Below are positions 10,927 through 64,000 of a stretch of 64,000 nt of DNA, in pieces. A program made the translations under genes and the position numbers. Source of the DNA: Psammoneis japonica (taxonomy: Eukaryota); contig QPGO01000013.1 of the NCBI GenBank assembly GCA_008632985.1, positions 124,001-188,000 of the forward strand, given 5' to 3'. Each line of letters begins with the position of its first letter. Position 1 is the stretch's first letter. The notes beneath the pieces are model-generated. The model was given only the letters and a program-made list of their open reading frames with translations. It was not told the DNA's origin and did no database searches.

Positions 10927-11335
10927 AGGCCAAAAGCAGTTTCAAGTTTGACTTGAATCCGGTTCAAGATTTCCAGAAAAATGAAACAAAACTCTCCCTT
11001 GATTGACGAGTTGTACTGTATGTTGTTGTGTAGCGTATAATCTTTAGTCTCTACCGGTAGCTAGATGAGATTAGCTTTTATCAGGCTGCACGCAGCGAGC
11101 GAGCTTCACCTCTGGCTACGTCTGGCTGTGGCTGCTGGTTTGCTTCTGGGTGAGCAAGGCATGCTTGGACGACGGAATGGTTCACCCGGCACCTTGCCGG
11201 CACACCAGCCAGCAGGGAAAGTGGCACAAATCTCGAATGTTTGCTCGCTTCGTGGCAAATTTTTTGACACTTTACACATTCAACGGACGAGCTCGGTGAT
11301 GCCGCCGGCACCCGGCTCAGTTCTGTCGATGAACC

Positions 11336-11350
11336 TCATGCGACCTCCTT
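11336..11350 (-). promoter_or_regulatory. Fossil bacterial Shine-Dalgarno plus ATGA stop/start overlap
   Basis: Minus strand AAGGAGGT-CGC-ATGA; TGA ends the aminotransferase frame and the overlapping ATG opens MRFIDRTEPGAGGITELVR*. Confidence 0.6.
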
Positions 11351-11960
11351 CTTCTTGGAGGCGAAGATGGCGAGGGCCACCTCGTCAAGCACCTGGCTGA
11401 ACACAGATCGACGACACAGAGCGGGGTGATTGCCGCGGGTGCATGCAGAAGATCCACAGATCAGATGCATTGCAAGCCAGGAATCCACGGATGTGAAGGG
11501 GGCATCATGGACACGGATGTGAAGGGCACTGTGGACAGGCCCAGCAGGGTGGTCGAGGACCATGACGATCCAGGTGCTGCAGCCACAGATTGTTGCAACT
11601 GCAGCACCGGGGATGCCCAGATGCTTCACATCTTCATCCAGGCTCCAAGCTCACTTGAGGCCATGAGCAGGCCTTCATCTTCAACTGTGGTGAGGGCAGT
11701 GTCGACTGCTGCACAGGCAAGGGGGCTGTCGCTGAACGTGGTTCTGTGCTCGCCAGGAGTGAGGGTCATGGCCATTGCATTGGTCAGGAGCAGGGTGGCA
11801 ACCAGAAAGCTGCTGCCCACACCCTTGCCTCCATGACAAGGTCCAGCATCGTGCCATTGTGCTGGCAGGTCAAGGAACCCCAGCCGAGCTGATGCCAGAC
11901 CAGAGCCATCAGCCCAACAGAGTTCTTCTGCGCCAGCAAGCCACACACTTTTGGTCACTT
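11336..11960 (-). pseudogene. Decayed C-terminal half of a bacterial-type class-III aminotransferase (ArgD/LysJ-like)
   Basis: Across frameshifts reads TCQHNGTMLDLVMEA-KGVGSSFLVATLLLT...LTPGEHRTTFSDSPLACAA...VEDEGLL...ICGCSTWIVMVLDHPAGPV, matching the PDxxTxAKGLGxGFP / HGTTFGGNPLACAA / VRGxGLxxGxxL pattern. Confidence 0.75.
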
Positions 11961-14900
11961 GTCAACAGTGCAGGATGGCTTTTTTGTGATCTGTTTTAGC
12001 CTCATGGCACTCATCCCAGCAGCCCACGTGATTCATGAACACGCGCCATTCCAGCTTGCTTTCTTCCATTTCCCTGCAGCATTTCTTGTTGCATTTCTTT
12101 TTGTCACACCCACAACCTGATGCCAGCACATTTTTGTTTCACGACCATCTCAAAAAACCTTGAAACACTGCTTGACAAATTTTCTGAGGGGACAGTCCCC
12201 CACAAAAAGATTGGGTCTTGTTGTCTTTGATTGATTGAAAAAAATTGCAGCTTGTCTGCCCATTTGTTGCTCATTTGTTTTGCACTCACTCACTTGCTCA
12301 TTTGCAAATCATGCGTTTGCAGTTGTTTGTTTGGCTTGCACGTTGGGTGGCTTTTCAAGTGCAAAACAAGAAGGAAAGAGATGGCCAAAACAGGAGGCTT
12401 CAAGTGATGATTGCCCATGCATCATGGCTCTTTTGCATCTCTCTAGCCCTCTTTTCCCTCTTGAGAGTTGTGGCGTTCAATGCCCTGCAAGATGGCACAG
12501 GTGAGCCAGGCTCTCCCCAGCCTCTGCTCTGCGAGTTGAACTCTAAAATTGCAAAAAGTGTGTCAGTTGGCCAATTTCTAAAAATCACTTAGTTTCCTGT
12601 GTCTCTTTTGGTGTCTCTGCTGTCTGGGTTTGTCGGCACAAGCTTTTTCTTCTTCTCTGTGGTGACTGCATTGTGGGTGACCTTTTTGGGCTGATCTTTG
12701 TTTTTGGCTTGTTGTCAAGGTGATCCCTGCCCTTCTTTTTGGGGTTGGAGTCAGAGTTGTGTGAGTGCAAACATTTTGCCCAGATTTTAGAAATTTTCAA
12801 AGTGCCAGCCACCAAATGCTGCTCAGCAGTGTTTGTCTCCACTGTTTGTTGCTGCTGCACAAAAAAAACATGAGTTTGATGTCCGCGCACAAATGGAAGC
12901 ACAAAGCAAGCCATGAGGTGAAGAAATGCTCACTTGCTGCCCATTTTGCATGTTGCAAGGCAGCAAATCATCATTGTCATCAAATGATTTGTTTTTTTTC
13001 ATTGACCACCCAACAGATTGAGCAGCCCTGGCCCCACATGCCTTTGTCCCACTTTTTCTTTTTTGTGCATTTCTCATGTTGCTTTCCCCTGCGTCTTTTT
13101 TTTTTCAGGACATTTCACACAGAAAATTGAGAAAAAGGATTGTTGAAATGGCAGCACCATTCTCCACCTCATGTCTCAGGTTGTTTTTAACTTGGGTGAA
13201 GCATGCATGCTGGGGCATGACATTGTGTTTGTCTGCAAGAGAACATGTGCCATCTCAGTGCTTCTTGCATGAAAAAAAAACGCGCGCTTCCCGCCAGTTG
13301 TTTTTTTTTGCGTTTTTCCCTGAGACTGTTTGTGTGGTGGTGTGCTCAACTGCAGGGTGCGCGTTCTTTGTGCACTGTGGGGCACAACATCAAAAAGAGC
13401 AATCTTTTGGCAAGGAATTGTTTTTGCACAAAAATGTGAAGATTTGTTTTTTGGGTTTGATGTGGGCTGCTGCCCTCGTTGCCAGCTGGGTTGTCTTGGG
13501 GACACCCACATCTTTGCACAAGTTGAACAAAATGGTTGTCCCTGAAACTCTGCTTGCTCAAGGGAGACCAGTCTGCTGCTGTTTGGGCTTTTTGTTCTCC
13601 ATGAAGAGCCGCCAATCAGTGAAAGGAACATGTTTTTAAGCTGGTGGTGACAGAGATTGGCAAGAGCAGCAGACCAACCCCCAGTCCTTTGCACAATGGT
13701 GGGAAACACATTTGTGTGTGCATGTTCATCTGTGCTGGCATGTTTCTGCACCCCATGGTCTTGAGTGCATTTGTGCCAAGCACACAGTTGAAATGCTCCC
13801 CAGCCTTTCTCAGGCCGCTTTTGTCAGCAACAAATTTGAAGAAAACAGGTTCCCAAATTTGTCTTTGGGCATGAAACAGAGAGCCCAGCTTTGGCACATG
13901 CGAGCCACACACAGTTGTCGTCATCTGCTCACAGTGCCGCTCTGCCACCCATGGCCTTTTCTGACAACTCCAGCTTGTTCTTGCAAACCTTAGCACCAAC
14001 AAGGCTCACAGTTCAGGGAGCAGCATGAGATCCCACCCAGGAAAGCTGGCTGGACCACATTTGTGCTGGTTTGAGGAAGACAAAGAGCCAGGGGCAAAGA
14101 ACAGGCTTGATGTGGGGACAGCTGTGCTGCTGATGCATGACAATGCATGCCACAACAGCAGCATGGCTTGGAGGGACCACACACAGTGACAGGCTGCAGA
14201 CAACATCAACAGCAGCTGTGTGGGCTGAAATTGACCCGCTGACCTGTGCCCCCATTGAGGAGATTTTTAACTTCTCCCTTGCCCAGGCTGGTCATGCTGG
14301 CACTGGCTTGCTTCTTCTTGTGGGCATCTGCACAGTGTGTGGAAGGGGGGGGGACTCCCCTCACTCAGATTTTTTTGCAGCCCTGCAAGTGCCTGCTCAA
14401 TTTTTCTGCAGCGCCCATGTGCACTTGTGCAAGTTGAGTCATTGCTTCACAGAGCAAGTCAACCAAGAAGTTGTTGCTGTGTGTCCATGGTCTGCACAAG
14501 CACCCCAACTTTGTCTTGACAAAAGTGCCATGTGTTGGAAGATTTGACCAACACTGCTCCGCGCACATTTTTTTGTCTGAAATCATTGTTTGAAAGGTTT
14601 GAAATCCCAACAAACTGCTCTCACATGTGTGCAGGGTGGTGAGAAGGCAACAAGACAAAAAAGTTGAAAAAAACTCCAAAAAGTGCTCAATTGTTCAAAA
14701 CAAGCAACATCCCAACCTCAACAGCGAGACACCAACTTTGGCAGCTGGGACAATGAAGAGCATGGGAGATGAAACAGAGATGTCAGTGCCAGCCAGTCTC
14801 AAATGAAAACAGAGCTCTGTGGGTTTTGCACTCAATGTTGCTGACAGCAGTGTTGGTTTTAGATCACTCAATCTGTGTGGGCCAAGAAGGGGCTTGTTTA

Positions 14901-16561
14901 TCTTTGGTGAGCTGTGGATGTCCCTCATTGTGGTCATTTTTTGGTGGCAGTGAAAATGTGGTGCAACCGCAGCACTTGAGGCCCAACTTGCACTGTTGCA
15001 TTGTTTCAGTTGGAGAGCAGCGCTCCTCACTTAAAAAAATCCACACACACAAAAGGAGATCAAAAGAAGATGCAAATCAAACTTCTTGCTCAAGAACACA
15101 TGCAGCTCATCATGATCTCAGTGCACAATGTTGGGGCAAACTGCTTTTTGTGCAGCTGGTGTTGGCATGGCCACTCATCATTGTGGGTGCTGCTTTGAGC
15201 TGTGTCATTGCAGCATTTGTGTGGCAGGCAGAGAAATTGAAAAAGTCCTGCTCTGGTGTCACAAGAGTGCAACATCATCTTCAAAAAATCTTGCTGGTGC
15301 CTTTTTGTCTCAGCATGCTTTTTGCACTCAATTCCAGGCCCTTGCAAGGTTCTTTTTGTTGGAGGACAAGAGAAAGCAAAGAAGCAGCAACATGTTGGCA
15401 TTGGAGCACAATGCACAAAGCTGCACTTCCCATTTTACCTTCCATTTTTGAGTGTGGCACATTCTTCTTTTTTGCCAGCAGCCAACTCTTGCTGGGCTGT
15501 CTTCTTGACATGAAATGCCCCCCAGATTGCACAGTCAAAAAATGTCAGATTCTGTGCAGCAGGCAGACCCAACCTGCTCCTGCTCAAGATGCTTCTCAAC
15601 CAGATTGTGTGGCACACATCTGGGCAAAAGAGCTTCTGGCACAGAAAGGCATTTTTTTTTGCAGCTGAGGGGCGGGGTGCCACAAATGTCTGTGCCCTCT
15701 TGTCATGCAATGCATCATGCATCAGAGGCAGCAATGCAGTGGTTTCCACTTTCCTTTGTAAAATTTTGAGTGTGCATTGTTGAAATTGTCAACAAGCAGA
15801 ACTTGAAAAATGCCAGCAAAAATGCTTGACAAAATGAAGCTGTTTTTTGCATTTTATCTGATGTCTCATTGACTTTTCTTGCACAAGCTTCAATCAAATG
15901 CATGCAATGTTTAACTCAATTGGGATCAAAATCCATTTTTTGTTGTGCATGGTTTGGTTTCCTTTTGATCGCAATCAATTTGAACTTGGTTTTAACTTTG
16001 TCCTCCTCACTCACATGTGTGTGTGTCTTTGCACGTGTGCAGTCTGCAGCACTTCACGCACGCACATGACCCACCTTCATTTTTCTTCACTTTTGCACAG
16101 CCCGTTGGTCCACGGGTTTTCAGCACATGTTTTGCATGCGCAATTTTCCACACATTTCACAACAGCACACCCTCTCCCCAAAGTTTGAAAAACGAGAGCG
16201 TGTGCTGTTGTGATTCACGTGGATCCTGCGTGTGGTCACAAATCTGCAAATCAACAACCGGCCATGGCGGTGAAAGACTTTGCCCCATTGGCCGACGACA
16301 GCAGCTCAACGCGTGGTGATGCCTGCCATCCTTCTGGTTGGTCAAGATGGGGTTTTATTCGGGCACAGCTTGAATTTTGTGATTGCGAGTGTGCTGTCAC
16401 AAATCTGCCGCATCCAGAATGCTGAGCTGCTGGCGTGTTGTTGTGTGTTGTGTGCACGCACGTCACAAACTTGCTTTTCTGCAGCGTTGTTGTGATCGCG
16501 TGTGCGAGAGTTTTGCATCCAGAATCATCACAAGTTGCCATGAATTGCACTGTCCAAACAA

Positions 16562-16831
16562 GGCATGCACAAAAAGAGGTTCGTTGTTTTTTGACACATT
16601 CGCTGGCAACACACCCGTCTTCTCCAATTTCTGTGTCCAGACCCAGAAAGACTGCAGGCGGTGCTTGTTCCTGCAGCTCCAGAACCACACACATGAAAAG
16701 TTCTTTGCCGCATGTGACACTCTTCAAAAAAGGCATGCACAAAAAGAGCTTCATTTGTTTTTGATGTGTTCACTTGCATCACATCCATCTTCTCCAATTT
16801 CTGTGTCCAGATCCAGAAAGACTGCAGAGGC
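16562..16831. repeat. Degenerate direct duplication (~100-bp unit, ~170-bp period)
   Basis: GGCATGCACAAAAAGAG...TCTTCTCCAATTTCTGTGTCCAGA.CCAGAAAGACTGCAG at ~16562 and ~16732. Confidence 0.85.
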
Positions 16832-18281
16832 AGAGAGTGGGGAGACAACCCATTGGAGGTTGCCTGAGTTGTTGGGCTCATTTTGAAGGCTTCCCAAGTC
16901 TCTCCGCTGTGGTTGGTTCATCTTTGTTGTGCTCTCACAACGTTTTCTACACTGTTTGACAATGAACAAGGTGGCTGCCAGCACTGGCAGTGGCTCTTCA
17001 AGAAAGAGAACTGCAGCAGCTGCTGCAAACTCGCCTGTTCCAGAATCGGCGGCGCCGGATGCACCGGCAAGTCCATATTGCTGTTCCTGTTGGTGGTGTC
17101 AGTTCATCCACATTGCACTCTCACAACGCATTCTGCATTTTTTTGGCAACGAACAAGGTGGCTGCAAGCAGCGGCACTCAAAGAAAGTGAGCTGCAACTG
17201 CTGCAGACTCTGGGGTGCTGTCTCCGTCGGCGTCATTTAATTTGAGTGTAAACAACAAAGTGGAATGTTCATGGTGCAATGCAAATGATTTTAATTTGCA
17301 GGTTTTGCAGGGATAGAGGGTGGGCACTCTCACAGGGAAAACGTGCCCCTGTTTCATGGTGAAACATTTTTTCTCATGGGGAGGGGGGTCTGATCCCACA
17401 GCACAAAAATGTTGATCTGTCACAGCTGGCATGTCATTGCCAGCCACACAACTAATGAGGTTTGAAACCACAAAAAAATTGTCTGTGAAAGGAACAAAAA
17501 TCACAATGAAAAGATGTGTGATGATCACCACATTGCGCGCTCTGATGTGCCGCCCTGTTGCGCAATGTGTGCTGCTCAAACACACCAGCCAAGTGGCGCC
17601 CCCAACTTGCCGGCAGCTGGCTGTTGCTGCTGCACCCTGCAAATTGTCTTGCTGGCAAAAACAATGTGTTGAAGCCACAGAGAAAGCCCTCCGGGGCACA
17701 CTCTCTCTTTTCATGAGATTTGGCCACATGCAAAACTGAGTTTGTGGCTGTTTTGGGAGTGACAGAGAGAAGCACCCTGGTTTGGACCTGATTGCTGTGG
17801 AAACAATGAAAGGGCTGTTGCCCAAGCTTGTGAGTCAGGGCTGGGAGAAAAGCGGAGGAGTGTTTTGCCAAATGGGTGCTTTGCTCGCAGAGCTCCACTG
17901 TTGGAAGTGTGGAGGAAGAAAGAAAAGCAGGAAAAGCACAGCATCTACAACTTCAGAGCCCCCAGGCATGCACGCAGCAGAGATGACGGAGTTTAGAAAC
18001 AAGGGCGGCAACGCACAGTCGTGTCGCACAACGGACGTGTATTGCCCTATATTCTTTTCATGAGGGAATTTGATCATTTCCAGTCAAACAGGTTAAATTT
18101 TTCATAAACGTCAACATTGCCGAATATGTTTTGATTGGATTATTACAGAATTAGCGATTTTGAAAAGAATCGGCGCGGGCTTTTTCCTGGAAGCGGACCA
18201 CAACATACTACACTGACTTGCTTCTGTGGGAGGAGGTGTGTTGGTGTTGTGCCGTGATGCTAGAGAGCATAATAAAGAAGA

Positions 18282-19905: not shown

Positions 19906-20529
19906 CGGCGAATGACGGCTGCACGACAAGGACACTTTAACACTAAAACAATAGACTGTAAAAACTTATTTTGTAAACCACACTTTTGCACACTGATTTC
20001 TATTAGGTCGACTCCCGTATCTGATACCATACCGTAGCTGCTCGGGCAATTCACAACAGCAAAGGGCAGCGTTGTCATGTATCCCAATCCTAAACTGACT
20101 CATAACGCATTGCTCCCCCCGCATACGTCACGGTGGGAATGGCATTACCGGTAATACAGTATCATTGTTGGGTGTCACCTTGCGTTTGCGAGTTGAATTC
20201 GCCGTTGCCGCCACGTTCCGTCAACTTCCAACCACCGCAAAACGAATCCAAGGCGCCTTCACGATCGCGACATCGTTCTCCTTTATTGTATAGAAACCCC
20301 TGCTATTTTGACTCATCTACGCAATGACAGGTCCTGTTGACAGTCATTTGGTACGTGCCAGTGACCGTGTTCCGACAAGTAGAGTTTCAGCATCCCTCAT
20401 TTTCTTGTTCCATGCTTCACTGACAACAACACACCAACCCCAGGCTGCCTGTCCCAATCAAAACCAACTTAAGCAAAGGCTTCTTTAGTTCATGACTTGG
20501 CTCACCCTTGTTGTTGTTAAATTAAAAAG

Positions 20530-20800
20530 GGTGGATCCACCTGCCCAATGACGGATCCTCTTCGTGTGCCGCTGGCATCCGACAGTGACCGTCTTCTGAT
20601 CGGAAAGCTTTCAAACTTTCAAAACTTCTCATTCCATGCGTTGTTGTGAAATGCAGAGGATGTCAGTGTTCTGTTCTCATCATCCTTGTCAACTGGATCT
20701 TGCTGTGAAGAAACATCATCCTTGCCTTTGTTGTGGCTCTGCAGACTGACCACAGTTCCTTCCAATTCCTCATGCAAGGTCGCTTTTACGCAGCTCTCCA
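20530..20800 (-). pseudogene. Helicase-associated (HA) domain pseudogene fragment
   Basis: AWNEKF(frameshift)ESLKAFRSEDGHCRMPAAHEEDPSLGRWI resembles the HA consensus W..F..L..F...GHC.VP..Y...P.LG.WV. Confidence 0.75.
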
Positions 20801-20899: not shown

Positions 20900-21895
20900 G
20901 CAGAAGGAGGCACAGAGGCAGCTGCAGTGACAGCGGAGTAGAGCGGGCACAGAATGCAGGACGCAGGGCATTTGGCAGAGGGAGTGGGGGGTGAAGGGGC
21001 GGGGAGAGAGGAAGCAAGTCGGAGGGCATGCATGGAGAGGTGAAGAGTGAAAAGCAACAATGCAGGTGTTGCAGGTAAGGTGGGAGCTCCAGAAGCATCA
21101 AGAAAAGGAATGGAGAGGAAGGCCAGCAAGCGGAGACAGCAGCAAAGGCAGGGAGACTTGCACACCATCAGAGGGAGCGTTGGCAAGAGTGGAGGTGATG
21201 ACTTGCTGCTGATGTTCATGACAAAGATGGTGGGCTGGCAGACCAGGAAGAGCAGCTGACTTGACTGGAGTGATCAGGGAGGAGGCAGAAAGAGCAGAAG
21301 CGGAGGCAAGAACCGGAGCGCAACGGCGGAAAATCGTGTGGAGGCACAGAGTCGAGCGGGGGTTGTGCCAGGAGGACAAAGACAGGCAAAAGCAGCAAGG
21401 AAGGGCAACAGTGACACCTGACAGGAGCTGAGTGCCTTGAGTTGCAAAGCAGAAAGAGCAAAGAAGAGAGACCATGAACAATGGAATGGCGGCAGCCGTT
21501 GGATCTTGGAGGCCAAAGCCGCCAAGCGAAGCAGGAAGAAGGAAGGCAACGGCGAGAGAATGATCAGGAAGAGGAGCAGCATGGGAAGCAGCACAGCCAA
21601 GAAAGCAATGAATGGTGCTGAGAAGAGAGTCTTGAAAGGAGGAGGTCCAAAGAAAGGGATCAGGAGGGTTGTCGGGATCAAAGTTGTGGTGGAAATCAGC
21701 GCCAAGAAGGTGGGCAGAGGAAGGGGGGTGAGGCAGTGCTTGAAAAGTTGACCTTGAGTTTGCTTGTCATGAATGTGGGTGAGAAGCATGCTGACTTTAT
21801 GGGAGAGAGTGGAAGAGGTGGTAGAGAGGAAGGAATTGGCAAAGTCTTGGGAGCCAAGAGGCTGACCGAGGAAGCGGACACCGGAGGTGAGCTCG
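20900..21895 (-). mobile_element. Truncated CRE/SLACS-like non-LTR retrotransposon, RT C-terminal/thumb region
   Basis: LTSGVRFLGQPLGSQDFANSFL (~21815-21890), QTQGQLFKHC, PASLGGFGLQD (~21500-21535), LPPLLSPLAGLPL; broken by frameshifts. Confidence 0.65.
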
Positions 21896-51557: not shown

Positions 51558-53299
51558 TACGGGTTCGTCGGAAGAGAAGGTATCTTTGTCTGATCAGCGT
51601 CCGCTTCGACCTTTTTCATATGATAAGTCCCCTACAGTTTCTCGTTGATAGGTATGTAAACCGTACACCGATTTCGTCACCACTGCGTGCTGAGCTAGAC
51701 TTACGATACAACGATGCAAGATCACTGATCACTGATGCGTAACACCCCTCAACAAAAAGAGATGATGACAATGAATGGGATGAAACTCGCGTCTCTTGTG
51801 GCGTCGTCAGGAAAGAGGCATAGCGGGTCGAATGAAGTCACTTCACCGCAGTGACGACGCGAAGAAAAAAGGCCTTTCTTTGTAGAACCTGGTACGAATT
51901 CTACGTGGAGCTGCGGAAAATTACGTTCGTGACAACGAAACGGGTGATTGGGTGGACAGCAGAAACCCGGAAAGGTGAACCGTAAGTACGCATAATTGAC
52001 TTGATTAAGTGATAGTTTTACTATCGTTAAAAGTGAATGACCGACTTTGCTTCACTTAAGACACGAATGGATGAACGTTATTTCTCCAGCGGTTCCAACT
52101 GTTCCAACTGTTCCAAACTGTTCCTTTAGCGATTTCACGATTAGATTTCACAAAATGCTTTCTCCGGAAATGTAGCTCGACAAAAGACATATTCTTTATA
52201 CGCGCTCTTCCCGTAAACGTGACACGTACGAATGAGGTGAAATGGACAAATTCGTTTTGAGCGCATTCATCATCTTACAAACCATTCAGTTCAACTTTGA
52301 TCGTCGCGAACCGATGACCACCACCCATCGTACGCATTGAAGTGCGACACTGCGACATCATGCCGCCACAGGGAAGCTTCACGTCACGTCACGCCTCCAC
52401 GCTGCGACACCGGTACTTAAACGCTGTAGAAAGCAAGACGTGGCATTTCGTTTTCGTCAGCATGTCGTCACACGCCACACGTCATCATTGCTTGGTACCT
52501 TCTTTCACTCCCGCCCCACTTCACGGCCGGGCAGCATGGATGCACGCAATTTGGTGACAGCAGCTCACATTCTCACAGCAATTTGAGCACATGCTTCTCA
52601 GGAGACCCAGCTGTCCTGCTGCCCTTCTGGCCTGTTCCAGCCCCAGGCAACCGCAACCCATCAAGCGAGATTTTTTGTGCGCAGCTTTTGGCATCGACAA
52701 TTTTGTCTCTGTCCAGCAGAGCTTGGCTTTTGTGGCAAACATCAAATGCCTTGATGATGTGATGCATTTGTGACAACAACGCATGTCTCCAACAACCAAG
52801 GTGCACATTTCATCACAGGAAGAGCACAGTGTCAGTTGGCGTTTCACGTTGTTTTGCAAACGCGTTGACCAGTGCTGACTCCTGCACGCGTGTGTGCCAC
52901 CCACATCAAAAACACACAATGTCAGCCACAGTGCAGCACACTGCTGTTGCCGCTCTGCCACCCCCTTTTCACCATTGCAGTTGCATGGAACCATCTGCTC
53001 TTTTCATTTGAAAGTTGCGCTGTTGTTGTCACAATGCAGCTGCGGCTCTGTGCAACCTCTTTTGTTGTTGCAGATGGCACCACTTCTTTTTGCACTCTCT
53101 TGTGTGGAGTTCAGCAAGTTGATTTTGTGTGTTGTGGTTCACACAAGACACTGCACATGTGCTTTTTCTGGTTGCCTCCAATGTCTTGTGTTTTGTTTGC
53201 TTTGCAGAGTTTCTGCAAAACTCGCATTTTTGTCCCAACGATTTTCAAATGACAGGCGCCACCATCTTGAACTTGTTTTTGTTTGTTTGCACTGTGACA

Positions 53300-54530
53300 C
53301 TTGCTGTTTGGTGCTGCCAAGCATCTGGAACTGCCTTGGAGGCTGTTTCTGTGCATCTGCATCACTTTTGCGGCACAGCTGATGTTGCCCCCCTCTCTGG
53401 AGTGCATTTGTTGCACAAACAGAAGTTCAAAAGCAGTGCAATCAAAATGGACAAGTCAGCCAAAGCAGCCACCAAGAAACATCTGGGGCTGGCAAATTCT
53501 TCCATTGGCGGCAGTGGCATTGCCCCAAGCAAACAATTCTTCAAGCCAGCCAAAGATGTCTTTTTGCATTGAGAGCTTCATTGACTCGTTGGAGAGGCAC
53601 ATTGCCAACCGGCGAGTTGGCACCATCAACCTCTCCAAACTTTGGTTGATCCCAAGATGTGCCCACAAGGTCTTGTGGAATTGAGCCTCTTGACCATCGA
53701 AGATCATGAGACCCAGAAGACCAGCCCTCTCTCTCTTTCAGGTTCTCATCACAGGAATGGTGTTGATGGGTTCAACATTGCCAAAGCATGAGTCCTGTTC
53801 CATGACACTGTTGTTGGTTGGTTTCATCAAGAATTTGCCAACAAGAATCAACTGCCAACAAAAGCATTTCTCAAGGAGAAGCATGACAACATGTTCATTT
53901 GTTGCGCAAGTGGAAGTGCAGCTTGCTGTTTGGCGCTGTCGAGCATCTGGACCTGCCTTGGAGGCTGCCTCTGTTCATCTGCATCACTTTCATGGCAGCT
54001 GATGTTGGCCCCCTCTCTGGAGTGCATTTAAACCACAAACAGAAGTTTGAAAGCAATGCAATCAAAATGGACAAGTTGGCCAAAGCAGCCAGTGAGAAAT
54101 GTCTGGGGCTGGCAGATTCTTCCGTTTGGTGGCAGTGCCCCTCAAGCAAACATTTCTTCAAGCCAGTTGAAGGTGTTCTTTTGCATTGAGAGTTTCTCGT
54201 TGACTCACTGGGAGCACATTGACCACCGGCAGGTTGCTCCAAAACTTGGTGCCATGAGCCTCTCCAAACTTAAGTTGACCCCAAGACGTGCCCACAAGGT
54301 CTTGTGGAGTTGAGCCTCTTGACCATGGAAGATCACAAGACCCAGAAGACCAGCCCTCTCTTTCATGTTCTTCATCATCACAGGAATGGCGTTGACGGGT
54401 TCAACAGTGCCAAAGCATGAGCCCTGTTCTATGACATTGTTGTCAATTGGTTTTGTCAAGAATTTGACAGCAAGATTTGACCGTGAATGCCCGCAAAAGC
54501 CTTTCTTGAGGAGAAGCGTGACAACATGTT
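53300..54530. repeat. Tandem duplication, ~620-bp unit, of a formerly coding segment
   Basis: CTTGCTGTTTGG..CCCTCTCTGGAGTGCATTT..GCCCACAAGGTCTTGTGGA..GACAACATGTT at ~53300 and ~53922. Confidence 0.9.
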
Positions 54531-55053
54531 GATGTTGGTTGCATTCCATCAGGAACATTGAGAAACACATTGCTGCTGTTTAGATGTGCTAGGTCAAGAA
54601 AGGAGTTGGTGTGCTTGTTGATTGCATCTGAGTGAACTGCTCTGGGTGATGAGAGAGGTGACAAGAGAAAGACCATCTCACACCACAGCATTTGTTTTTT
54701 TCTGTCAGATGTTGCAAGTTCACTTCCCCAATGGCCCAAGAAAAAAGGGCTGTTTCAAGGAGCCGCTGGCTCACCTTGCTGATTGGTGCAAGGCAGCTTG
54801 CCAACTGCAATGGCGCTTGTTTTGCAGAAGAATGCATCGCCATCATTGCTTGGCTCATGCCAAGATGGCAAAGGAAATTCTTGAGGGTGATGAGAATGAA
54901 ATGCAAGAGGCACATGAGGGCACCAAAAGCTTGCAACTGTGAGATGGAAACAAAGAGGAGGAGGATCAAGGGCAAGAGGCATGGATGTCTCAGCTGAGGA
55001 AGAGGAGGAAGACACAGAAGAGGAAGAGCAGGAGCAGGGGGGGGGGGGGGCGT

Positions 55054-55575
55054 GAAGAATGCAGAAGACTTGGCACTTGGAGACATGAAGGCAGAGAAGG
55101 AGAGGGCAGGAGACAGGCATTGCAAATGCTGGATGGAGCTCATGAAAGCCACAACTGGAGTGAAAAATGATGACGATCTCATTGGCCTTTGCGGCTTCAA
55201 GCCAAAATCAGGAGCGCCAGGAGCACCTGTGTTTCATTGGTTCTTGAGCAAAGGCAAGTGCCACCAACAAGAAAGCGCGATGACAGAGCAAACGTGTGAC
55301 AAAGTTCATGGAGCAGGGGAAGCTGCTGAAGAATGCAGAAGACTTGGCACTTGGAGACATGAAGGCAGAGAAGGAGAGGGCAGGAGACAGGAGACAGGCA
55401 TTGCAAGTGCCAGATGGAGCTCATGAAAGCCACAACTGGAGTGAAAAAGATGACAATCTCATTGGCCTTTGCAGCTTCAAGCCAAAACCAGGAGCACCAG
55501 GAGCACCTGTGTTTCATTGGCTCTTGAGCAAAGACAAGTGCCACCAACAAGAAAGCGTGATGACAGAGCAAATGT
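55054..55575. repeat. Tandem duplication, ~275-bp unit
   Basis: GAAGAATGCAGAAGACTTGGCACTTGGAGACATGAAGGC...CCACCAACAAGAAAGCG at 55054 and 55328. Confidence 0.9.
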
Positions 55576-56159
55576 GCAACAATGCTTGAGTCATGTTGCA
55601 GGTTAAAAAATTTGTTTTGATTGACCCCAGTTCATGAAGCAGGAGAGAAGCTGCTGCAGCCAGGCAATTCTGCAGGAGCTGTTCCTCACTTGTTTGGCTG
55701 CATTGCTGAAGAGAATGAGGGCATTGTGTTGTGTGAAGAATGGTTTGTCCAAAGGGCCAATGCATTGAATGGCCATCCCATGGAAACATGTGTGGGCCTC
55801 ATCAAATGTGCTGAACACAAACCCAACATTGCCTGGAAATTAAATCAAAGATGATGCATCAACAAGATTGAGCACAAGGTGCATGTGATTTGCAGCAGTG
55901 CACCGCAGATTGCAAGACTCAAGAGATTGAGTCAGGAGGTGATGCAAAAGCTTCCACATCTTGTGCGGGGTGCTGATTTTGTTGGTTGCACCCAGCAGGG
56001 CAACCGTCCAATGTGTGTGACACAAGATTGAGCTGAGTGCAATTTCCAGGTGTGGTTTCCAGAAGTTTGGAAAGATTTGAAAGATTGGAAGCCAGGGGAG
56101 GGTTTCTGCATCTTGCTGGAAGGAAACGTGTTGATGCCATTGGATGCCAACTTGCTGAC

Positions 56160-56620
56160 AAGCAGCCTGCCTGTGAAATTCTTGCAAGGACACAACAACA
56201 CTTGCTTGTTTTGTCCCTGACCTGTGTTCTTCATTGTGCTTTGTGCTGGTGACCTGGAAATGAGAGATTGCATTCCATCTCATGTTGAAACATCTGCCAA
56301 CCATGCCAACACCAATGACAATTGCATGTTGTTTGAAAAGCACATGCTGAGCCACTGTTTGAAGGGAAAGTTCCCATCAACAAACTCAAACATGAAGTTT
56401 TGCTGCAGTTTGGATCAAACCATTTTCTTGGAAGCAGGTGGTGAATTTGATGTGTGACAACCTGCAATGATGGCTGCACAACTTTGTGCCATCTGGTGAA
56501 CAACCACTGCATTGCCTTGCACCATGGATCTTTGACTCCAATCACAGTTTTGCATTGCCAGCAAAGGAGGACATCAAGTGCTTGAAACGGTGTCTTGGAA
56601 ACAAGGAACATGATGTGAAA
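56160..56620 (+). pseudogene. Decayed ORF with a papain/C39-like peptidase pattern
   Basis: VKFLQGHNNTCL (~56173-56208), NHCIAL (~56502), WIFDSN (~56525): Q..C / H / D order typical of papain-fold proteases; family uncertain. Confidence 0.4.
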
Positions 56621-56999
56621 CATGTGGCAAAAAAGGTCTGAAAACAAGTGGCCATGGTGTGCCAGTTTGAACTTCCAAGGGTGGTGGCACAGCAGGCAAA
56701 TGGCAAAAGGAAAGATCTTGTGTTGGGTGGTTCATCTGGTTGCATGATGCAAAGTGACAATCACAGTGTTTGTTCATTTTCCCACTGCCATTTCATTCCT
56801 CAGACTCATCACTTTCACTGTCCCCTCCTGCACTCTCCTCCTCCTCCTTGCAGTCCACTGCTGTGCTGTTCTCCTCCTCATCATTGTCACTCTCTTCCTC
56901 CCAACTCATCAGCTTCGCTGTTGTCGTCCTCCTCCAAACATTCCTCAAAATGATTCATTGACTCATGCTGGTGAATCGCACCAAGAATGGCTTTGTGCT

Positions 57000-59480
57000 C
57001 ATCCTCACTCAAATTGCGTGGAATGAGAAGTGAAGCCTCATTCCTGTTGCATGTCCTTGGCAGCTGCAGAGAGGCTGATGGTTCATTCAGCTCGGTGTTT
57101 GCAGCTGCACTTTGCTTGAGCAACACTCTTGTCTGACATTCCTCAGTGTCAGCAGGAGTGCACCATCCTCTGGCCCATGGAGCACAGTTTGCAAGCATTC
57201 CCTTGCAAACCCACTCACTGGCCTCAACAGGTGTGGGTGGATCAAACTTGTTCCACACCACATCTTCGCATGCTTTGTGGGGCAGTTCATCCCATTGCAG
57301 CAGATGGAAGCTCTCATCAGATTCACAAGACAAAATGTGGCACAGCTGTTCATGACAATTTCCTTTGCCATTTCCTCAGTCAATTTGTCCAACACAGGTT
57401 TGTGGGCCAACTGCATCTTGTCAGCATCACTCTGAGTTGTTGGAAGCACCTGACAAACTTGCCAATCATTCAGTCCCTCAAATTGGGCCACAGTTTGCAA
57501 GCTTGGTTGCCACCTGCATGTCGAGGCCACTCAGCTGGCTTGACATTGTTCACCCAAGGTCAATTCAGCTGATCCAGGCAGCCTTCACAAGGGCAAGGAA
57601 TTGGTTGAATGGCAACCCAAACAATGGGAAAAAGAGAATCAAATCAAAAATGGCACATGGCGCCAATGCCACAATGGTGCATGCAAACTTGCACCAATCC
57701 AGTCAACTTGACTTCAGCTGAAGAGCCAAGAACTTCATCAGCTTCTTGCAGAAAATGTGCCCTTTCTTTCAACTTTTGAAGGGACTCCCTCAAAGCATGT
57801 TTCCTGTCACCAACTTTGCCACACTGGCACATTTTTTCATTTTGAGAAATTTGAAACATTCCTGAGTGCAGCTGTGCTCTGCTGCAACATTGTTGTCATC
57901 CATGGCCAGAGCATCAGCTCCAATTTTGCTGTCCTCATCATTGACTCCTGCAACAGTTGCAGACTGCATTGCTCAACACACAAGTGATTCAACACAGGCT
58001 CCAATTCCATCGACCTCTCCTTTGTCATGTCCAGGTCAGGGGACATCTTTGGAAGTGAGATCATCGAAGGCGGTCTGATCACCAGTGCATTTGGGGACTT
58101 TCCCAGTGCGGTTTGCACACAAAAGAAAACATGCAGGATCTGTCCAGAGGTCCCAAATGCCCAACTGCACTGACTGACAGACTGTTTTGGTGCAAATTCT
58201 GTGCAACTTTCTTTGACAGTCTCACTTCCAAAGACGTCCCCCAAGGTGCTCCAATGGCGCGGTCCAATGCAACGTTGCATTTGTGGGCAAACACTGACAA
58301 CAAGTGCAGTGCCGAAGGGCATCAATGCTGTTTGGCACAACCATTGCTCTGTGCAATCCCAAATTGCAAGCCACACCTGACACAGTCCATGGTTCTTTAA
58401 CTGTGCGACAAAGTTTTCCAAGTGAGTGTGGGTGGTGGTGGCGGCATCTTGCTCAGAAGAGTCAAAGAGATGTGCCTGATGTGTTTTTTCAGCCTCATTG
58501 TCAACCATCACATTGCAAACTCTTCTTTCAATGGACAATGTTTTGTTGTTGCCACAATGATCCCCATGAATTTGGTTGTTAAACTTGGCTGCTGGAATGC
58601 CAGAGCAGTCATGAAATGTGAAAATGCTGTTGGGCATTGACTCAAATGCTTTGCAACACATTTCCATGCAATGATTTTTCCCAAGAATGGCCACCTGGGG
58701 AAGGTGGCAATGCAGCTTCTTTGCACTTGGAATGCAGCGTTCTTTTGCAAAAAGTCCAACTGTTTTGTGGAACCTTGTCAACAAGATCTTTCATTTGACC
58801 TTTGCATCCTTGTTCCCACCTGGATCTGCCTCACAAACAGGACATGCTTCCATGAACATGTCATGCTTGAGGCACCTTTTTGCAGTCAAATGCCATTGAA
58901 ACAAAACTTGGAGCACACTGGAACTTTCACTCTGTTCCAACAATGGAGTTGGGTGGGATGCCATGCTTGCATTCACCCAAAACATGTTTCCAATGAGGGT
59001 GGTCATGACCATTGACATTGCCACAAATGATGGTTGCAGCTGCATCTCAAGCTTCAGGATGAAGGTGATTGGAGTTGGAGCCAAACGTTTCCTCTTGATG
59101 ATGGCACATTGTCCTCTCCAATTTGCGTGCAGTGCTGTCATGGTTCTCTTGTTCACTTTTTTCCCCTTCATCTTCAACAAGAATCATGTCTCTTGAGTTG
59201 GGATGCTGTGCCATGTCTGGGATGATTTGACAACCAGCGCACATCAGCTTTGCTGATCTCAGGGGAAACTTTGTGAGGGTGCTGATGGGGCTGTGCACTG
59301 AAGACCACATGACATTGCCTTTGATCACAATCAAAGCCACTCTGGCCGTCTTTCCCTGCCTCGTCATTTGGTGACAAACAGCCCCTGGATTCAGGCTGCT
59401 GGGTGCATTGGCGCAGTCCTTGGACAACAACCCAGGCTCATCAGCAGGTTTTTCCAGAGAACTGGAGACTCCAGCCGCCA
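57000..59480 (-). mobile_element. Fossil DDE/D-type transposase gene (possibly Sola-like), interrupted by a MITE; ends approximate
   Basis: FHDCS..AAKFNNQIHGDHCG..TLSIE, DSSEQDAATT, SNGCAKQH*C..ALHLLS...LDRAIGAP|GHDKGEVDGIGA, IPCPCEGC, FEGLNDW. Confidence 0.65.
58037..58243. mobile_element. 207-bp MITE with ~22-bp TIRs and 4-bp TSD AGGT
   Basis: GGGGACATCTTTGGAAGTGAGA ... TCTCACTTCCAAAGACGTCCCC; AGGT at 58033-58036 and 58244-58247; removing it restores GAP-GHxKG. Confidence 0.88.
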
Positions 59481-59894
59481 CTGAATGGACAAAAAGATTG
59501 TCGTCAAAGCAGCACTGACCATTGCTTTTGTCATTGGCATGTGGCTGCCTGCATTTTGCCCAGCTGCTGGGTTGTTTGCAAGGCAGCAGACTTTGCTTTT
59601 GGCAACGTCAAGTCACAAGTCTCAACATGAGCCAACTCAGGAAAATGCAAAGTGCGCACAAAGGCAGTGGCTTGTTGCTCTTGAATGGCAGTGCAAGACA
59701 AAACTCTTTGTCTTGTTTCAGCCGCTGCATGACAAAGTGCTTGTTGGGGATTTTCGTGGGTTGCATCAAAGGCGCGAGGGGATCAACAATGGGGCACTCT
59801 CAAAATTGAAGGAGCTTGTTGTGCTGAGTGCAAAAATGGGCCAGCAATGGGTTGCGCACCTCTGTTGACACCTGCTGGAGCTGGGGCAGGCCTT

Positions 59895-60110
59895 CTGTTG
59901 GTCATGTGGCCACAATTGACCCAGGGCAGGACAAAAAGCCAAGCGTGCTTTGTGGCCAGACAGCCACCAAGAGATGTTCAGTGTGGCTGGCTCCTTTTGC
60001 GCATCGAGCCGCACACTCTGTTGGTCGTGTGGCTGCATTGACCCAAGGCAGGATGAGTGGTCAAGTGTGCTTTGTGGCCAGGTGGTTGCCAAGAGATTTT
60101 CAGGGCAGCT
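59895..60110. repeat. Degenerate tandem duplication (~125-bp period)
   Basis: CTGTTGGTC.TGTGGC..ATTGACCCA.GGCAGGA..GTGCTTTGTGGCCAG..CCAAGAGAT occurs twice. Confidence 0.75.
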
Positions 60111-60185
60111 TGCTCCTCTTGCACATCAAGCTGCACACAGTGGCAAGCAGCTGCTTTTTCACAAAGAACAACAAATTCTCTTGTG

Positions 60186-60189
60186 CACG

Positions 60190-60231
<42 letters not shown>

Positions 60232-60333
60232 ACCACACACACCACACACACCCCCCACACCACACACCACACCACACACCACCCCCCCCACCACACACCC
60301 ACACCACACACACCACCACACCACACCACACAC
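60186..60333 (+). repeat. (CA)n microsatellite grading into CACCA repeats
   Basis: Read directly from the sequence. Confidence 0.95.
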
Positions 60334-60556
60334 TGTTTGCTCCAACAAGAGCCAACAAGAGCTTGCAGAAGATGCCATCTTGTCTGCAAAAAAGGAGAGA
60401 TGTGTGGAGTGCATGGGCAGACATGCGCATCACCACTCTGATGCAGCACAGCCCTGGTTCAATCCCGTGCCTTCTTTGCAGAAGCTTGGGCTTTCAAACA
60501 CTGCCTTTTTGACAGAGGCCTTGGATGCAGACATGAGCAAGTGCCAGCGCCATGAT

Positions 60557-60816
60557 GGCCTGTTCCAGCTCCAGGTGCTCCGTGCGGGCTCGATTCCCAT
60601 CATTTGGAAATTTGTGAATTTGGCGCAATTGACTTTTTCCAAATCCGTTTTTTGCCAAATCGAAGGGCAAGTGTGCACTTCACATGCATTTTCGGGTGTG
60701 CACTCACCTTTCGATTTTCGAAACGATCAAAATTGAAGGAGTCAATTGCACCAAACTGCGCAGAAAATCGGCCTCTTGCGTGATGAAAAGCAGAGCACCT
60801 GGAGCTGGAACAGGCC
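60557..60816. mobile_element. 260-bp MITE with perfect 24-bp TIRs and 4-bp TSD TGAT
   Basis: GGCCTGTTCCAGCTCCAGGTGCTC / GAGCACCTGGAGCTGGAACAGGCC; TGAT at 60553-60556 and 60817-60820; inner inverted pair TTTGGCGCAATTGACT/AGTCAATTGCACCAAA. Confidence 0.88.
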
Positions 60817-63800
60817 TGATGATGAGACACCCTCCAGCCAGCACACGCAAGCCAGCACATGCAAGAAAAGACAGTTGCGTGGTTTTTGCCACATGTGGTC
60901 TCTGAAATTTGACCAAACTTTTGCCACAAAAAGTGCGGCAGCAAGGGTGACCCATCATTGCCCAAGAGGGTCTTGTGGCCCTTCTTCTCAGATCAGCTCA
61001 GGCATCCTCAGCAGGAGGACAGCGCTGGTCTGTCCCTGTGCAGGCACCAAACAGCACTGCTTGGGCCAGATTCTGCCCACAGAGATGGAACATCAGCTTG
61101 AAATTCCACCAAGGCAGATGCTGTCAACACAGCACCCTCCCAAGATGACCAAAACTCTGCCAAGTGTGGCTGCAATGCCAAACTCCACTCAAATCATGCA
61201 CGCAGCAAGTTGGCACATTTCTGCACAAAAACGCCACACCCTGCATTCCTGTGACTGCATTTTGATGCCAACCAGAAACAAATTTCATGACCACATGTGG
61301 TCACCAGGTGCAGCTGCTTTTGTCACCCTGTTTTTTTTGTGCTTTTGCAACAACCACATGTCCACACAACATGATGACTGACAACAACGAGAATTTTGTC
61401 AACGACCTTGGATCTGACAAGTCTTTTGCAAGCCTGTCATTGCACTTGCGTTGATTGCTTTGTTGATTGATGTGCGCGGCACCAGCGTGGTTGTGCTTTG
61501 TGCAACATTGCCACCACTCTGACACTCCATTTTCCTTCTTGCCCTTTCAGACCTCCAGAAGAGTGGCGGTGTTGACACCAAAGCAGATTGTGAGCAGGAG
61601 ATCCATCAAAATGTTGGCAAGGTGCACAGAGCATGAGCAGAAGATCCATCAAAATGCTGGCAAGTTTGACTGTTTTGTGAGTTTTTGGGTGACACACGCG
61701 CTGTTTGCAAGTGGTTTTCTCAACAATGTTTTTGTTTTTGTGTCTGTCATTGGTGCGGCCACTGGCCTGGCAGCCTTTTGGGAAGGCGGACTGTGATGCT
61801 GTGTCTGCCATTTCATTTGTCCCAGCAAATGAGGTTGGCTCAGTGTCTGTTTGTCGCCAATTCTCCAGAGGATGCTGCTGTGCTCTGTGTGCTTGCAGTC
61901 TGTGCAAGTTCATCCCCAGCTGGCTTGCTGGTGTCATGACTGTGGCAAATCTTCACGTGCAATGCATGGCATGTGTGGTCAACCAGCCACAATGGGAGAA
62001 CAGGGAAAGCAAATTGACCTGATTTTAAACAAGCAGATCTGTTTCTGCTTGGCACCACAGTGCGCCATCTTTCCACTGCGTGGGCATCTTGGGCACGGCA
62101 ATTGTGCCAAGCTGCGCAGATGCACTCACACAAAGTGTCAAACTGGCAAGCCAATTTTGCCAAAAGGGAATCCTGCAAAGCTTCCTGTGCCACTCATTGC
62201 ACTTGCCCTGGCTGCTGTGGTGGCTGTGGTTTGCCTGGAAGTTCTCAACAAACTTCAAACTCATGATGCAAAACAGGCACCTGTGCTTGCACATTTTTGC
62301 AAACCAGATGATTCACTCCAAAGAGCAAGAACAAAACGCAAAACAGAAGGAAGAGTCATCATTGTGGCGTGCAGCAGGATCTGAATGGGTTCAATGTGCC
62401 AGGGGGTTCTCACACCCTTTTGGTTTTTTTGTGCTGTCACACTCAGCTGTGTCCCCACCCATCTTTTCTGGGACTTGTGTTGGAGTTCCAAGGCTTGCCA
62501 ACAGATGCACAGCAGTTGGCATTGCTGACCCCAACACAACCTTGCCACACCCTCCTTCAGCAGACCTTCAACAGCTTCTTTGACAGCAAGGCACCCTCCA
62601 GAGATTGTTTCTTCACCCTCATCCAGCCAGCTCATTTGCTGCAATCTGCCAAGGAACACCACAAGGCACACCTTTGGGTTCCTGTTGACCTCCTGGTCTG
62701 TTTCTTTTGACTCCTGTGTTGACTTCCCAGCCCTCACATCTGTGGATTCCCTTGACTTTCCAGCCCCCGTTCTGTGGATTCATCTTGACTTCTCAGCCCT
62801 CAAATGACTCTGCTCTTTTGAGCATTGTGCCACAATGACCAGCACACATTCTGTCTCACCATCTCCCAACTCACTGAATGGCTTGCAAACACATTGGCTT
62901 GTGTTGCTGGCTGTTGTCACCATGTCAACCAGGCACAGAAGATGGGAAGCATGCACAAAACCCGCGGCTCAACCCAAGGTTGCACAGCACCGCTGCTCCC
63001 CACAACTGCCCTTTCATTTGGTTGTCACTTGCAAAATTGTGCCTCAAGTGTTCCTTTTGCATGTTTCCAGGCTGGCCATTGTTGGTTTTCCATGGACACA
63101 CTGCCGCCATGCCCTCTCCATTTGTGCCTTGTCAAATGGCATGCTGGAGCACAGATCTTGGCACTGGGGTGCCACAAACAAATTTGCGCTGCCTCCCTTG
63201 GCTTCTTTTTCAAGCAAGGAAACTGGCTCCTGGACTTTTTAGTTTGTGCCTGTTCAACTGTGGCCTCATTTGCACACCAGGGCAAATTTCCAGAAACTCT
63301 CACGAAAACTGCTCTTCAGCAAAAGCACCTGGCACCTCAGATGCATCTCACCTGAAACCCCCAGAACAGCTCCAATGTCTGTCTCTTCTCTTTGTGTCTC
63401 TGAAGGAGACAGGGGTGCTCTGAGGAAACATTCTGGCAATGCTGGCATGCTGGAGGTGATGCCATGGTGGAGGCAGTTTGTGCAGGAAATTTGCCAAAAA
63501 ACTCCACACTTTCAAGAGGTGCTGTGGTGGAGCCAAACGTCACTCAATGACACAAAGTGCAAAATTGTGTGTTTTCAGGTGTGAAGATTTTGTCATGAGG
63601 TCATTTGGGGCTCATGGAGCTGCAACCAAAATGTTTTGTCTTTTTTCAAAATTCTTTTCAGGTGATGCTTGGCACGACTTGAAGACTGGTGCCACCAATT
63701 TTTTGTCAACTCAAACTTCTTTCCTCCCAACAACAACTGGCACTTCTCCATGGGCTCTGGTCACAGCTCATCAAAAGAAGCAAGAAGACTGCTCAACTGC

Positions 63801-64000
63801 AAGCAGAGAGAATGAAAGCAGGGCTCAGCTTGTCCCTGATGATGATGCCAGGGAGGAACTGGGTGCCACCGCTGTTGTTTTGAGGAGGGAATTCCTTCTG
63901 CAGACTCAGGCAAGAGCACCAGCATCCACAACCACCTCTTGGCTGTTTTGCAAAAGTGTGACATTGATGAAAATGAAAAGCTTGACAAGATGGAACAGGC

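Follow-up and report, generated by a model that had tools for sequence, protein, structure and literature searches.

Two tracts of the genome of the diatom Psammoneis japonica have lost nearly all of their TpA dinucleotides. Both lie in the window analysed here, a 64,000 nucleotide stretch of contig QPGO01000013.1 (assembly GCA_008632985.1, positions 124,001 to 188,000, forward strand), and all findings on these islands come from that one 64-kb window. In the islands TA was changed into CA and TG, on both strands, close to saturation, within sharp borders and independently of a decay of CpG in the same DNA; the tetranucleotide TTAA was spared. It is very probable that islands of dead mobile DNA and gene fragments underwent two dinucleotide-specific mutation processes in place, and we are slightly more confident still that a local, TpA-specific hypermutation at the DNA level is real. 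This is a new instance, in a diatom, of a hypermutation described very recently in another organism, the chlorarachniophyte Bigelowiella natans; what it contributes is near-saturation, CpG decay in the same DNA and a rule on flanking bases.

The composition of the islands and of the genes around them was as follows (o/e, ratio of observed to expected counts).

11274..17946, island 1: 6,672 bases; TA 26 (o/e 0.06), CG 117 (0.30), CA o/e 1.86, TG o/e 1.66.

52497..64000, island 2: 11,503 bases; TA 11 (o/e 0.01), CG 148 (0.22), CA o/e 1.84, TG o/e 1.78.

Flanking genes, approximately 41,000 bases: TA 1651 (o/e 0.58), CG 2226 (0.98), CA o/e 1.15, TG o/e 1.15.

At the background ratio, 430 TA would be expected in island 2 and 252 in island 1, where 11 and 26 were found. 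The loss is confined regionally: TA o/e is 0.58 over the flanking 41 kb, as against two islands with sharp edges, the second of which holds the transposon relic described below. The left edge of island 2 falls just after the last ordinary TA, at 52496, the next TA being at 54029; to the right, island 2 extends past the end of the window. Expressed in percentage points of all dinucleotides, island 2 shows TA+CG down by 8.07 and CA+TG up by 8.35, and island 1 shows TA+CG down by 7.32 and CA+TG up by 7.63, so that conversion of TA and CG accounts for the island composition. CA and TG counts are similar (1333 versus 1270 in island 2, 710 versus 752 in island 1) and balanced along both islands, and GC content is nearly unchanged (0.472 versus 0.483-0.488).

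One consequence is seen in the stop codons: over the six frames of island 2, 552 of 573 are TGA. Because TGA is nearly the sole stop, the length of an open reading frame (ORF) carries no weight there. Searching Pfam with 113 stop-to-stop ORFs of at least 70 aa across 52.3-64 kb returned nothing real; a Semialdhyde_dh match (E 0.008-0.24) was taken as chance. No common repeats were found between islands 1 and 2 by blastn. Island 2 does hold an internal repeat.

53300..54533, plus strand: tandem duplication, approximately 620 bp per copy, 81% identity.

Where tandem copies differ in a dinucleotide, the difference is most often CA versus TG (12 sites for the 620-bp pair, 5 for another pair of 122 bp). 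As read from the sequence, such differences would be the footprint of independent decay, copy by copy, of a self-complementary YpR dinucleotide.

The direction of the change was established in a protein relic within island 2. The preliminary description of this DNA had reported a transposase fossil in which Tyr codons of conserved motifs had become His and Cys codons. The features concerned are these.

58244..58348, minus strand: motif peptide; the family's TDGCAKQYRC..ALYLLS..KY..IDRAIGAP reads SNGCAKQH*C..ALHLLS..KC..LDRAIGAP in the relic.

56833..59250, minus strand: relic of a transposase-like gene of approximately 1130 aa; 7 colinear segments in three frames, mapped by tblastn.

58036..58243: insertion of approximately 205 bp resembling a miniature inverted-repeat transposable element (MITE); 31-nt inverted arms (58039-58069 and 58211-58241), flanked by an ACCT direct repeat.

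On the minus strand, positions 58348 to 58244 of the window read SNGCAKQH*CPSALHLLSVFAHKCNVALDRAIGAP. The peptide was thus found, its span differing by 1-2 bases from the 58245..58350 first assigned to it, and so were all the codons singled out for it, namely CAT at 58325-27, CAC at 58304-06, TGC at 58277-79, TGA at 58322-24 and AAT at 58343-45. To find relatives, 56402-59998 of the minus strand was translated in the frame of the motif, with X at stops, and compared by phmmer with 1.84 billion representative proteins. This gave 47 matches at E≤10−3, 9 of them at ≤10−10 and the best at 2.4×10−18, confined to two stretches, one of which is exactly the motif peptide. The peptide showed 37-57% identity over 33-38 aa with approximately 30 of the 47 homologues, and belongs to a genuine protein relic. 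When the 47 homologues were compared with the island by tblastn, a colinear relic appeared from approximately 59250 to 56833, matching homologue residues of approximately 440-1170; the homologues matched are 1003-1218 aa long, and the homology extends over most of the protein. Its 2418 bases contain 2 TA and 23 CG, together with 290 CA and 262 TG.

Twenty-six aligned homologues gave the consensus TDGCAKQYRC..ALYLLS.LA.KY..IDRAIGAP, followed by GHGK..VDGLNA.DK. The KQY position, where the relic has CAT, is Tyr in all 26, and the ALY position, where it has CAC, is Tyr in 17 (F 5, W 2, H 1, L 1), so that the claim of an ancestral Tyr stands up at both when checked against homologues for Tyr as opposed to His, Cys or Arg. 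At the KY position, where the relic has TGC, Tyr is the commonest residue, as had been proposed, though it occurs in just 10 of the 26 (F 6, H 4, K 2, W 1, Q 1, C 1, L 1), a weaker basis than was claimed. Judged from the alignment, the Tyr assignments at KQY and ALY are sound, and at KY Tyr is simply the commonest state. The residue after KQY is Arg in 26 of 26 homologues, where the relic has TGA, in agreement with CpG decay of a CGA codon. Similarly, the D of TDGC is Asp in 26 of 26, and the Asn that replaces it in the relic is encoded by an AAT preceded by a C (AGC|AAT), again as CpG decay predicts.

The test was extended to the whole relic. Codons covered by tblastn alignments with a bit score of at least 35 were scored against the aligned homologue residues, and where two frames overlapped the same DNA the less supported frame was dropped, which reduced 793 codons to 713. 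A column was called conserved when at least 8 homologues were aligned and at least 60% of them agreed; 207 columns qualified. None of the 15 Tyr-conserved columns is still Tyr in the relic: 7 are His, 5 Cys, 2 Leu and 1 Phe. His or Cys is thus present at 12 of 15 Tyr columns, versus 7 of the 172 with a consensus other than Tyr, His and Cys (Fisher p = 7.7×10−12). Since columns that are Tyr in the family are now His or Cys, the direction is fixed as TA to CA or TG, and this tabulation of the fate of ancestral Tyr codons along the relic bears out the direction, TAY to CAY or TGY, that had been drawn from the motif peptide. As a control, the 47 homologues were aligned independently with MAFFT: almost every one retains Tyr in the majority of the Tyr columns it covers and shows 0-2 His or Cys, with the short fragments P0006, P0030 and P0035 as exceptions; Tyr makes up 1.8-3.8% of the full-length homologues.

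Other residues fared differently. The 16 Arg columns read Arg 4, Cys 1, Trp 1, stop 2, His 2, Gln 2 and others 4, so that products of CpG decay (Cys, Trp, stop, His, Gln) occupy 8 of the 16. The family residue persists in all 11 Cys and all 4 Trp columns, in 12 of 13 for Pro, 9 of 10 for Asp, 7 of 8 for Thr and 7 of 9 for His, and among columns that are neither Tyr nor Arg, 116 of 176 are unchanged. The 87 mismatched conserved columns include, as single steps, TA>CA 8, TA>TG 5, CG>CA 6 and CG>TG 4. Ile-to-Val changes were considered as further cases of TA>TG, across codon borders, and rejected: 0 of 4 have a 5′ T.

Both products were found, as had been claimed. In order along 1.7 kb, the outcomes at Tyr sites are H C C C H H H C H H H C. 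The similar numbers of Tyr-to-His (7) and Tyr-to-Cys (5) changes, together with the near-equality of CA and TG in both islands, indicate that both strands of TpA are hit.

Two of the exceptional fragments, both metagenomic, deserve description. P0006 (216 aa) lacks Tyr altogether; it covers 3 of the Tyr columns and reads His, His and Cys there. P0030 (149 aa) shows Tyr 1 and Cys 2 at Tyr columns. Both are possibly copies of this element family that underwent hypermutation in other organisms.

The label of transposase received indirect support. The homologues come from metagenomic contigs of 1.8-7.4 kb, where they are annotated as “hypothetical proteins”. None of 14 matched Pfam at E≤0.01, 15 members shared no Pfam hit at E≤5, a search of the family profile against the PDB found no relative, and the three minus-strand frames of 57001-59998 gave nothing real in Pfam. 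Metagenome contigs were scanned with intact motifs as seeds, which favours intact copies, and 80 loci encoding relatives were found. In 4 of 8 long loci examined, the gene is flanked by terminal inverted repeats (TIRs) of 24-32 nt beginning GACGTG, which bound elements of 4207-4991 bp. Because relatives lie between such repeats, the gene is transposase-like, and “transposase of a TIR DNA transposon” seems a reasonable label for the gene behind the relic. The family, which has no Pfam entry, may represent an undescribed or unmodelled transposon superfamily. Matches to the family TIR start (GGAYRTGKTCC, 1 mismatch allowed) numbered 3 in the window, versus 6.25 expected, with none in island 2; ends of this kind were not found for the relic. 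The four elements with TIRs (loci L005, L011, L015 and L065) are 4.2-5.0 kb long; their repeats begin GACGTG(T/G)TCC, and no obvious target-site duplication was seen at these loci. The nearest clusters in the protein atlas are of animal proteins without names and of DUF7869, no more than a lead; a literature search on DUF7869 found no paper.

The insertion at 58036..58243 splits the relic between ..IGAP and PGHDKGEVDG, the latter corresponding to the GHGK..VDG motif. From its arms and direct repeat it looks like a MITE, a small non-autonomous transposon. One arm begins GGGGACGT, resembling the GACGTG start of the family's terminal repeats, and the insertion is possibly a non-autonomous relative.

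Loss of TA is separable from loss of CpG. Within island 1, positions 11274-11997 contain 0 TA and 28 CG, and positions 16001-17000 contain 2 TA and 33 CG. Conversely, CpG decay without TpA loss is common in copies of the transposon family from other hosts: TA o/e is 0.35-0.93 in all 80 metagenomic loci, none being below 0.35, and one of them (L078) combines a CG o/e of 0.02 with a TA o/e of 0.67. Taken with four others (L048, L034, L045 and L019), L078 belongs to a group with CG o/e of 0.02-0.30 and ordinary TA o/e of 0.59-0.69. The CG decay of the islands looks like a second process, distinct from the first.

The few TA that survive in the islands are not a random sample. Among the 37, 15 are TTAA, as compared with 5% of TA in the flanking genes (p = 9×10−11), and 16 more have a 5′ T or a 3′ A, making 31 of 37 in all. 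Only 6 of 37 have neither, versus 60% in the background. These counts fit a per-strand target consisting of 5′-TA-3′ not followed by A or, equivalently, of a T not preceded by T. Under such a rule (B, any base but A; V, any base but T), TTAA would offer no editable strand, TTAB and VTAA one each, and VTAB two. Two weaker signs point the same way: NTGA/TCAN are among the least enriched 4-mer classes in the islands, and all 7 Tyr-to-His sites have a 5′ base other than T, which by chance would occur approximately 13% of the time. Surviving CG also has preferred contexts: GCGC makes up 41 of 265 (15.5%) in the islands versus 5.4% in the flanking genes, and GCGT/ACGC and CCGC/GCGG are enriched as well.

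We therefore propose the following scheme for the islands. A first process would be a TpA-specific transition, A to G, or T to C when it falls on the other strand, which would have gone nearly to completion and turned TA into TG and CA. A second, less complete, would be the decay of methylated CpG to TG and CA. In a coding relic, the first would turn Tyr (TAY) into His (CAY) or Cys (TGY) and leave TGA as nearly the sole stop. The first process would be an enzymatic editing of DNA, targeted locally to silenced sequence that is foreign or repeated, whether mobile or duplicated. As to its chemistry, the target of the tRNA A34 deaminase always follows U33. The most likely and most economical reaction would be deamination to inosine of the adenine in 5′-TA-3′, on either strand, as proposed for B. 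natans (Mettrop et al., bioRxiv 10.64898/2026.01.13.699255). By this analogy adenine deamination is our leading candidate, held tentatively and at appreciably less than an even chance. Such a process would serve as a defence of the genome akin to fungal repeat-induced point mutation (RIP), with the opposite chemistry.

The closest known system is that of B. natans, as presented in the main text of the preprint (10.64898/2026.01.13.699255). There, mutation-accumulation lines showed de novo mutations at approximately 6×10−7 per site per generation, all of them TpA to TpG or CpA, in an integrated giant virus and virophage. The genome contains 124 clusters depleted in TpA and enriched in CpA+TpG, and its TpA-poor genes are enriched in DDE and reverse-transcriptase domains. 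An ADAT2-like adenine deaminase is proposed, and a resemblance to double-stranded RNA (dsRNA) editing by ADAR is also raised. Compared with what the preprint reports, the likeness is that TpA alone is hit, with TpG or CpA as product depending on the strand, and that the effect is confined to particular regions. The differences are several. The host is a rhizarian there and a diatom, thus a stramenopile, here. TA o/e is 0.01-0.06 and nearly saturated in our islands, versus 0.45 in the B. natans viral insert, and the background TA is 4.0% of dinucleotides here versus a reported 6.0%. What was hit here is a TIR transposon relic, along with gene fragments and tandem repeats, where B. natans has a giant-virus insert. 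The B. natans spectrum is almost purely AT to GC and shows no excess of GC to AT, whereas our islands also show decay of CG to TG and CA (CG o/e 0.22-0.30); CpG decay is strong here, and the term CpG is absent from the main text of the preprint, which does not mention a TTAA exception such as the one described above. In the literature searched, we found no description of a TpA-to-TpG/CpA signature in diatoms; it is known from the B. natans preprint only.

Other known processes resemble the island pattern in part. RIP in ascomycetes is likewise a local, saturating set of dinucleotide-specific transitions that ruins repeated and mobile DNA and has sharp borders against genes. However, RIP changes C to T, mainly at CpA, which creates TpA and lowers GC, whereas the islands have lost TpA and gained CpA and TpG, with hardly any change in GC. 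The TpA excess and CpA/TpG deficit typical of RIP were not found in the islands, where TA o/e is 0.01-0.06 and CA and TG o/e are 1.66-1.86. Decay of methylated CpG, by deamination of 5-methylcytosine, explains the CG deficit, the Arg changes and the Asp-to-Asn change at a C|G junction. It cannot remove TA, the loss of which is more complete than that of CG and occurs where CG is half present. The CG deficit with TG/CA excess expected of it was observed in the islands, yet leaves the TA loss unaccounted for. Finally, APOBEC (C to U) and ADAR (A to I) are editing-based defences with a neighbouring-base preference. They act on dsRNA or on the single-stranded DNA of replicating elements, whereas the islands are resident chromosomal DNA of all kinds, affected on both strands.

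Among alternatives to an editing enzyme, the one that survives best, although we regard it as unlikely, is a regional mutation bias, in which the T or the A of TpA would be modified or damaged in silenced chromatin and then mis-repaired or mis-copied over long periods. Oxidation of thymine to 5-hydroxymethyluracil by enzymes of the TET/JBP type, or a TpA-specific lesion, would give T to C or A to G. The end state is silent on which base of the pair is attacked, the CA/TG symmetry fits a palindromic double-stranded DNA target as well as it fits a deaminase acting strand by strand, and the CpG decay found alongside shows that the islands carry base modification. In dinoflagellates, TpA is a preferred site of thymine hydroxymethylation. 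In the literature searched, no report of such a thymine modification in diatoms was found. The bias would also need a very large rate ratio, TA removal being approximately 97-99% while 116 of 176 other conserved residues are intact. Moreover, according to the B. natans preprint (10.64898/2026.01.13.699255), the signature there arises de novo within a few hundred generations, in only some lines, and looks regulated.

An assembly artefact is considerably less probable still. Real DNA would have kept TA and CG, and modified bases would have been miscalled as G/C (and T/A), strand by strand, by a long-read base-caller. Modification on both strands of a palindromic dinucleotide, miscalled according to the strand of the read, would indeed give TG and CA and never TA, and the islands are likely methylated. 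Against this, the direction of the change switches on a scale of 3-130 bases, with a CA product 3 bases from a TG product (58327 and 58324), whereas the strand majority in long reads would stay uniform over kilobases, and near-equal coverage called position by position would yield TA and CG too. The relic also contains frameshifts, the MITE-like insertion and many other substitutions. A public sequencing run contains 70% of the sampled 31-mers of 52001-62000, unlike raw error-prone reads; among the public runs searched, none of RNA was found to contain this sequence. The B. natans signature, for its part, came from Illumina data according to the preprint (10.64898/2026.01.13.699255).

RNA-level A-to-I editing of double-stranded repeat transcripts by an ADAR-like enzyme, followed by reverse transcription back into DNA, is highly improbable. 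ADAR prefers a 5′ U, and the 5′ T preference and the involvement of both strands do resemble dsRNA editing. However, the affected sequences are a TIR DNA transposon, a host-type gene fragment, tandem repeats and non-coding DNA, uniformly up to a sharp border, and they bear no sign of retro-copying. ADARs are not known outside animals. That the island DNA never had TA, whether from a source of that composition or through selection, is scarcely credible: nothing beyond the composition itself speaks for it, and it conflicts with a relic that is broken and has lost Tyr at columns conserved in its family, with normal TA in 80 of 80 loci of relatives, and with a mass balance that fits conversion from a host-like composition.

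Several points weigh against TpA-specific hypermutation as we present it. The island sequence rests on the assembly and on the one public run, of unspecified platform, which is possibly the source of the assembly itself. The evidence is that of an end state. Of the mismatched conserved columns, 87 in all, the two processes fit just 23; the rest are 16 other transitions, 24 transversions and 24 cases that need two or more changes, and the last two classes, 48 of 87, are uninformative on process. Such mismatches are many because the relatives are merely 25-57% identical to the relic, and the ancestral codons were deduced from the family consensus of these relatives rather than from a close copy. 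The flanking-base rule rests on 37 surviving sites. Finally, CpG decay by itself could produce the CA/TG differences between tandem copies.

At its widest, our proposal is that diatoms possess an active, targeted DNA-editing defence that clears silenced transposons, duplicated genes and other foreign DNA of TpA, except within TTAA. Bigelowiella would have the same system, which would thus be an ancient defence of the SAR supergroup (stramenopiles, alveolates and Rhizaria) and a mirror image of RIP, carried out by a putative DNA adenine deaminase or thymine modifier. For this whole proposal we would claim nearly, and not quite, an even chance. If TpA-specific hypermutation of mobile DNA does operate in P. 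japonica, it would be found in a second major lineage of eukaryotes, and as primary producers diatoms rank among the most important; an observation from a preprint on a single species would become a candidate for a widespread genome defence. Genome surveys would have a cheap computational marker in TA-free tracts rich in CA and TG, Tyr-free relics and TGA-only stops, and the sparing of TTAA constrains the putative enzyme. There is also a practical warning, as TA-free tracts defeat domain searches (no Pfam domain in the 11.5 kb of island 2) and create long spurious ORFs.

Gene remnants, and a stretch alleged to be one, were found elsewhere in the window, one in island 1 and the others between the islands.

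11629..11961, minus strand, island 1: fragment of a class-III aminotransferase, of the acetylornithine/ornithine type; Pfam Aminotran_3, E 1.6×10−8.

20525..20662, minus strand: repeat 1 of a helicase-associated domain (HA) pseudogene, reading ..MPAAH.., with CAC at 20564-66; Pfam HA, E 2.3×10−8.

20301..20468, minus strand: HA repeat 2, reading ..VPNDC..; weak Pfam HA match (E 0.063), two in-frame stops.

21077..21798: purine-rich stretch of 722 bases without TA, containing the alleged motif FKHC (21736-38) of a long interspersed nuclear element (LINE).

The aminotransferase fragment sits in a 724-base stretch without TA, and its PDB alignments are with acetylornithine and ornithine aminotransferases. 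Gly residues of its relatives are replaced by Ser or Arg at C|G codon junctions (GGC AGC AGC; CAC AGA). A search for longer homologous proteins returned none for this piece, and its downstream frame had no match in the PDB.

The HA pseudogene had been put forward as a second example of Tyr replaced by His, and is partly supported. The HA match (E 2.3×10−8) and the CAC codon at 20564-66 are both there, and the Cys of repeat 2 occupies the same profile position as the His of repeat 1. At that position the HA consensus would be Tyr, and His and Cys would be the two products expected from one Tyr codon. A search for longer homologous proteins found none for this piece, and a PDB search returned just designed repeat proteins. 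In 20301-20662, Trp codons have become TGA stops (..RK*G.. and ..RR*V..); these changes, from G to A and in neither CpG nor TpA, show that ordinary decay acts on this stretch too. The third example, FKHC in a LINE, did not hold: the motif is present, yet no reverse transcriptase, endonuclease or other LINE domain was detected by Pfam in the ORFs of 20.7-22.0 kb.

The flanking genes are intron-poor and encode FtsZ, three tandem serpins, leucine-rich repeat proteins, PRP4/WD40, VIPP1 and aspartokinase. Among the best 120 matches to the FtsZ, the named relatives are all diatoms, at 68-82% identity, and the protein atlas likewise points to a diatom. Bigelowiella itself was considered as the host and rejected, given the scarcity of introns, the diatom relatives of FtsZ and the lower background TA (4.0% versus 6.0%). 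The three serpin copies (29783-35137) share 78-80% DNA identity, and the first (29.7-31.1 kb), split over several ORFs, is probably a pseudogene. To the right of island 1, a transporter of the major facilitator superfamily (18276-19905) is carried by two overlapping ORFs, 18276-19136 and 19084-19905, the split reflecting either a frameshift or a short intron.

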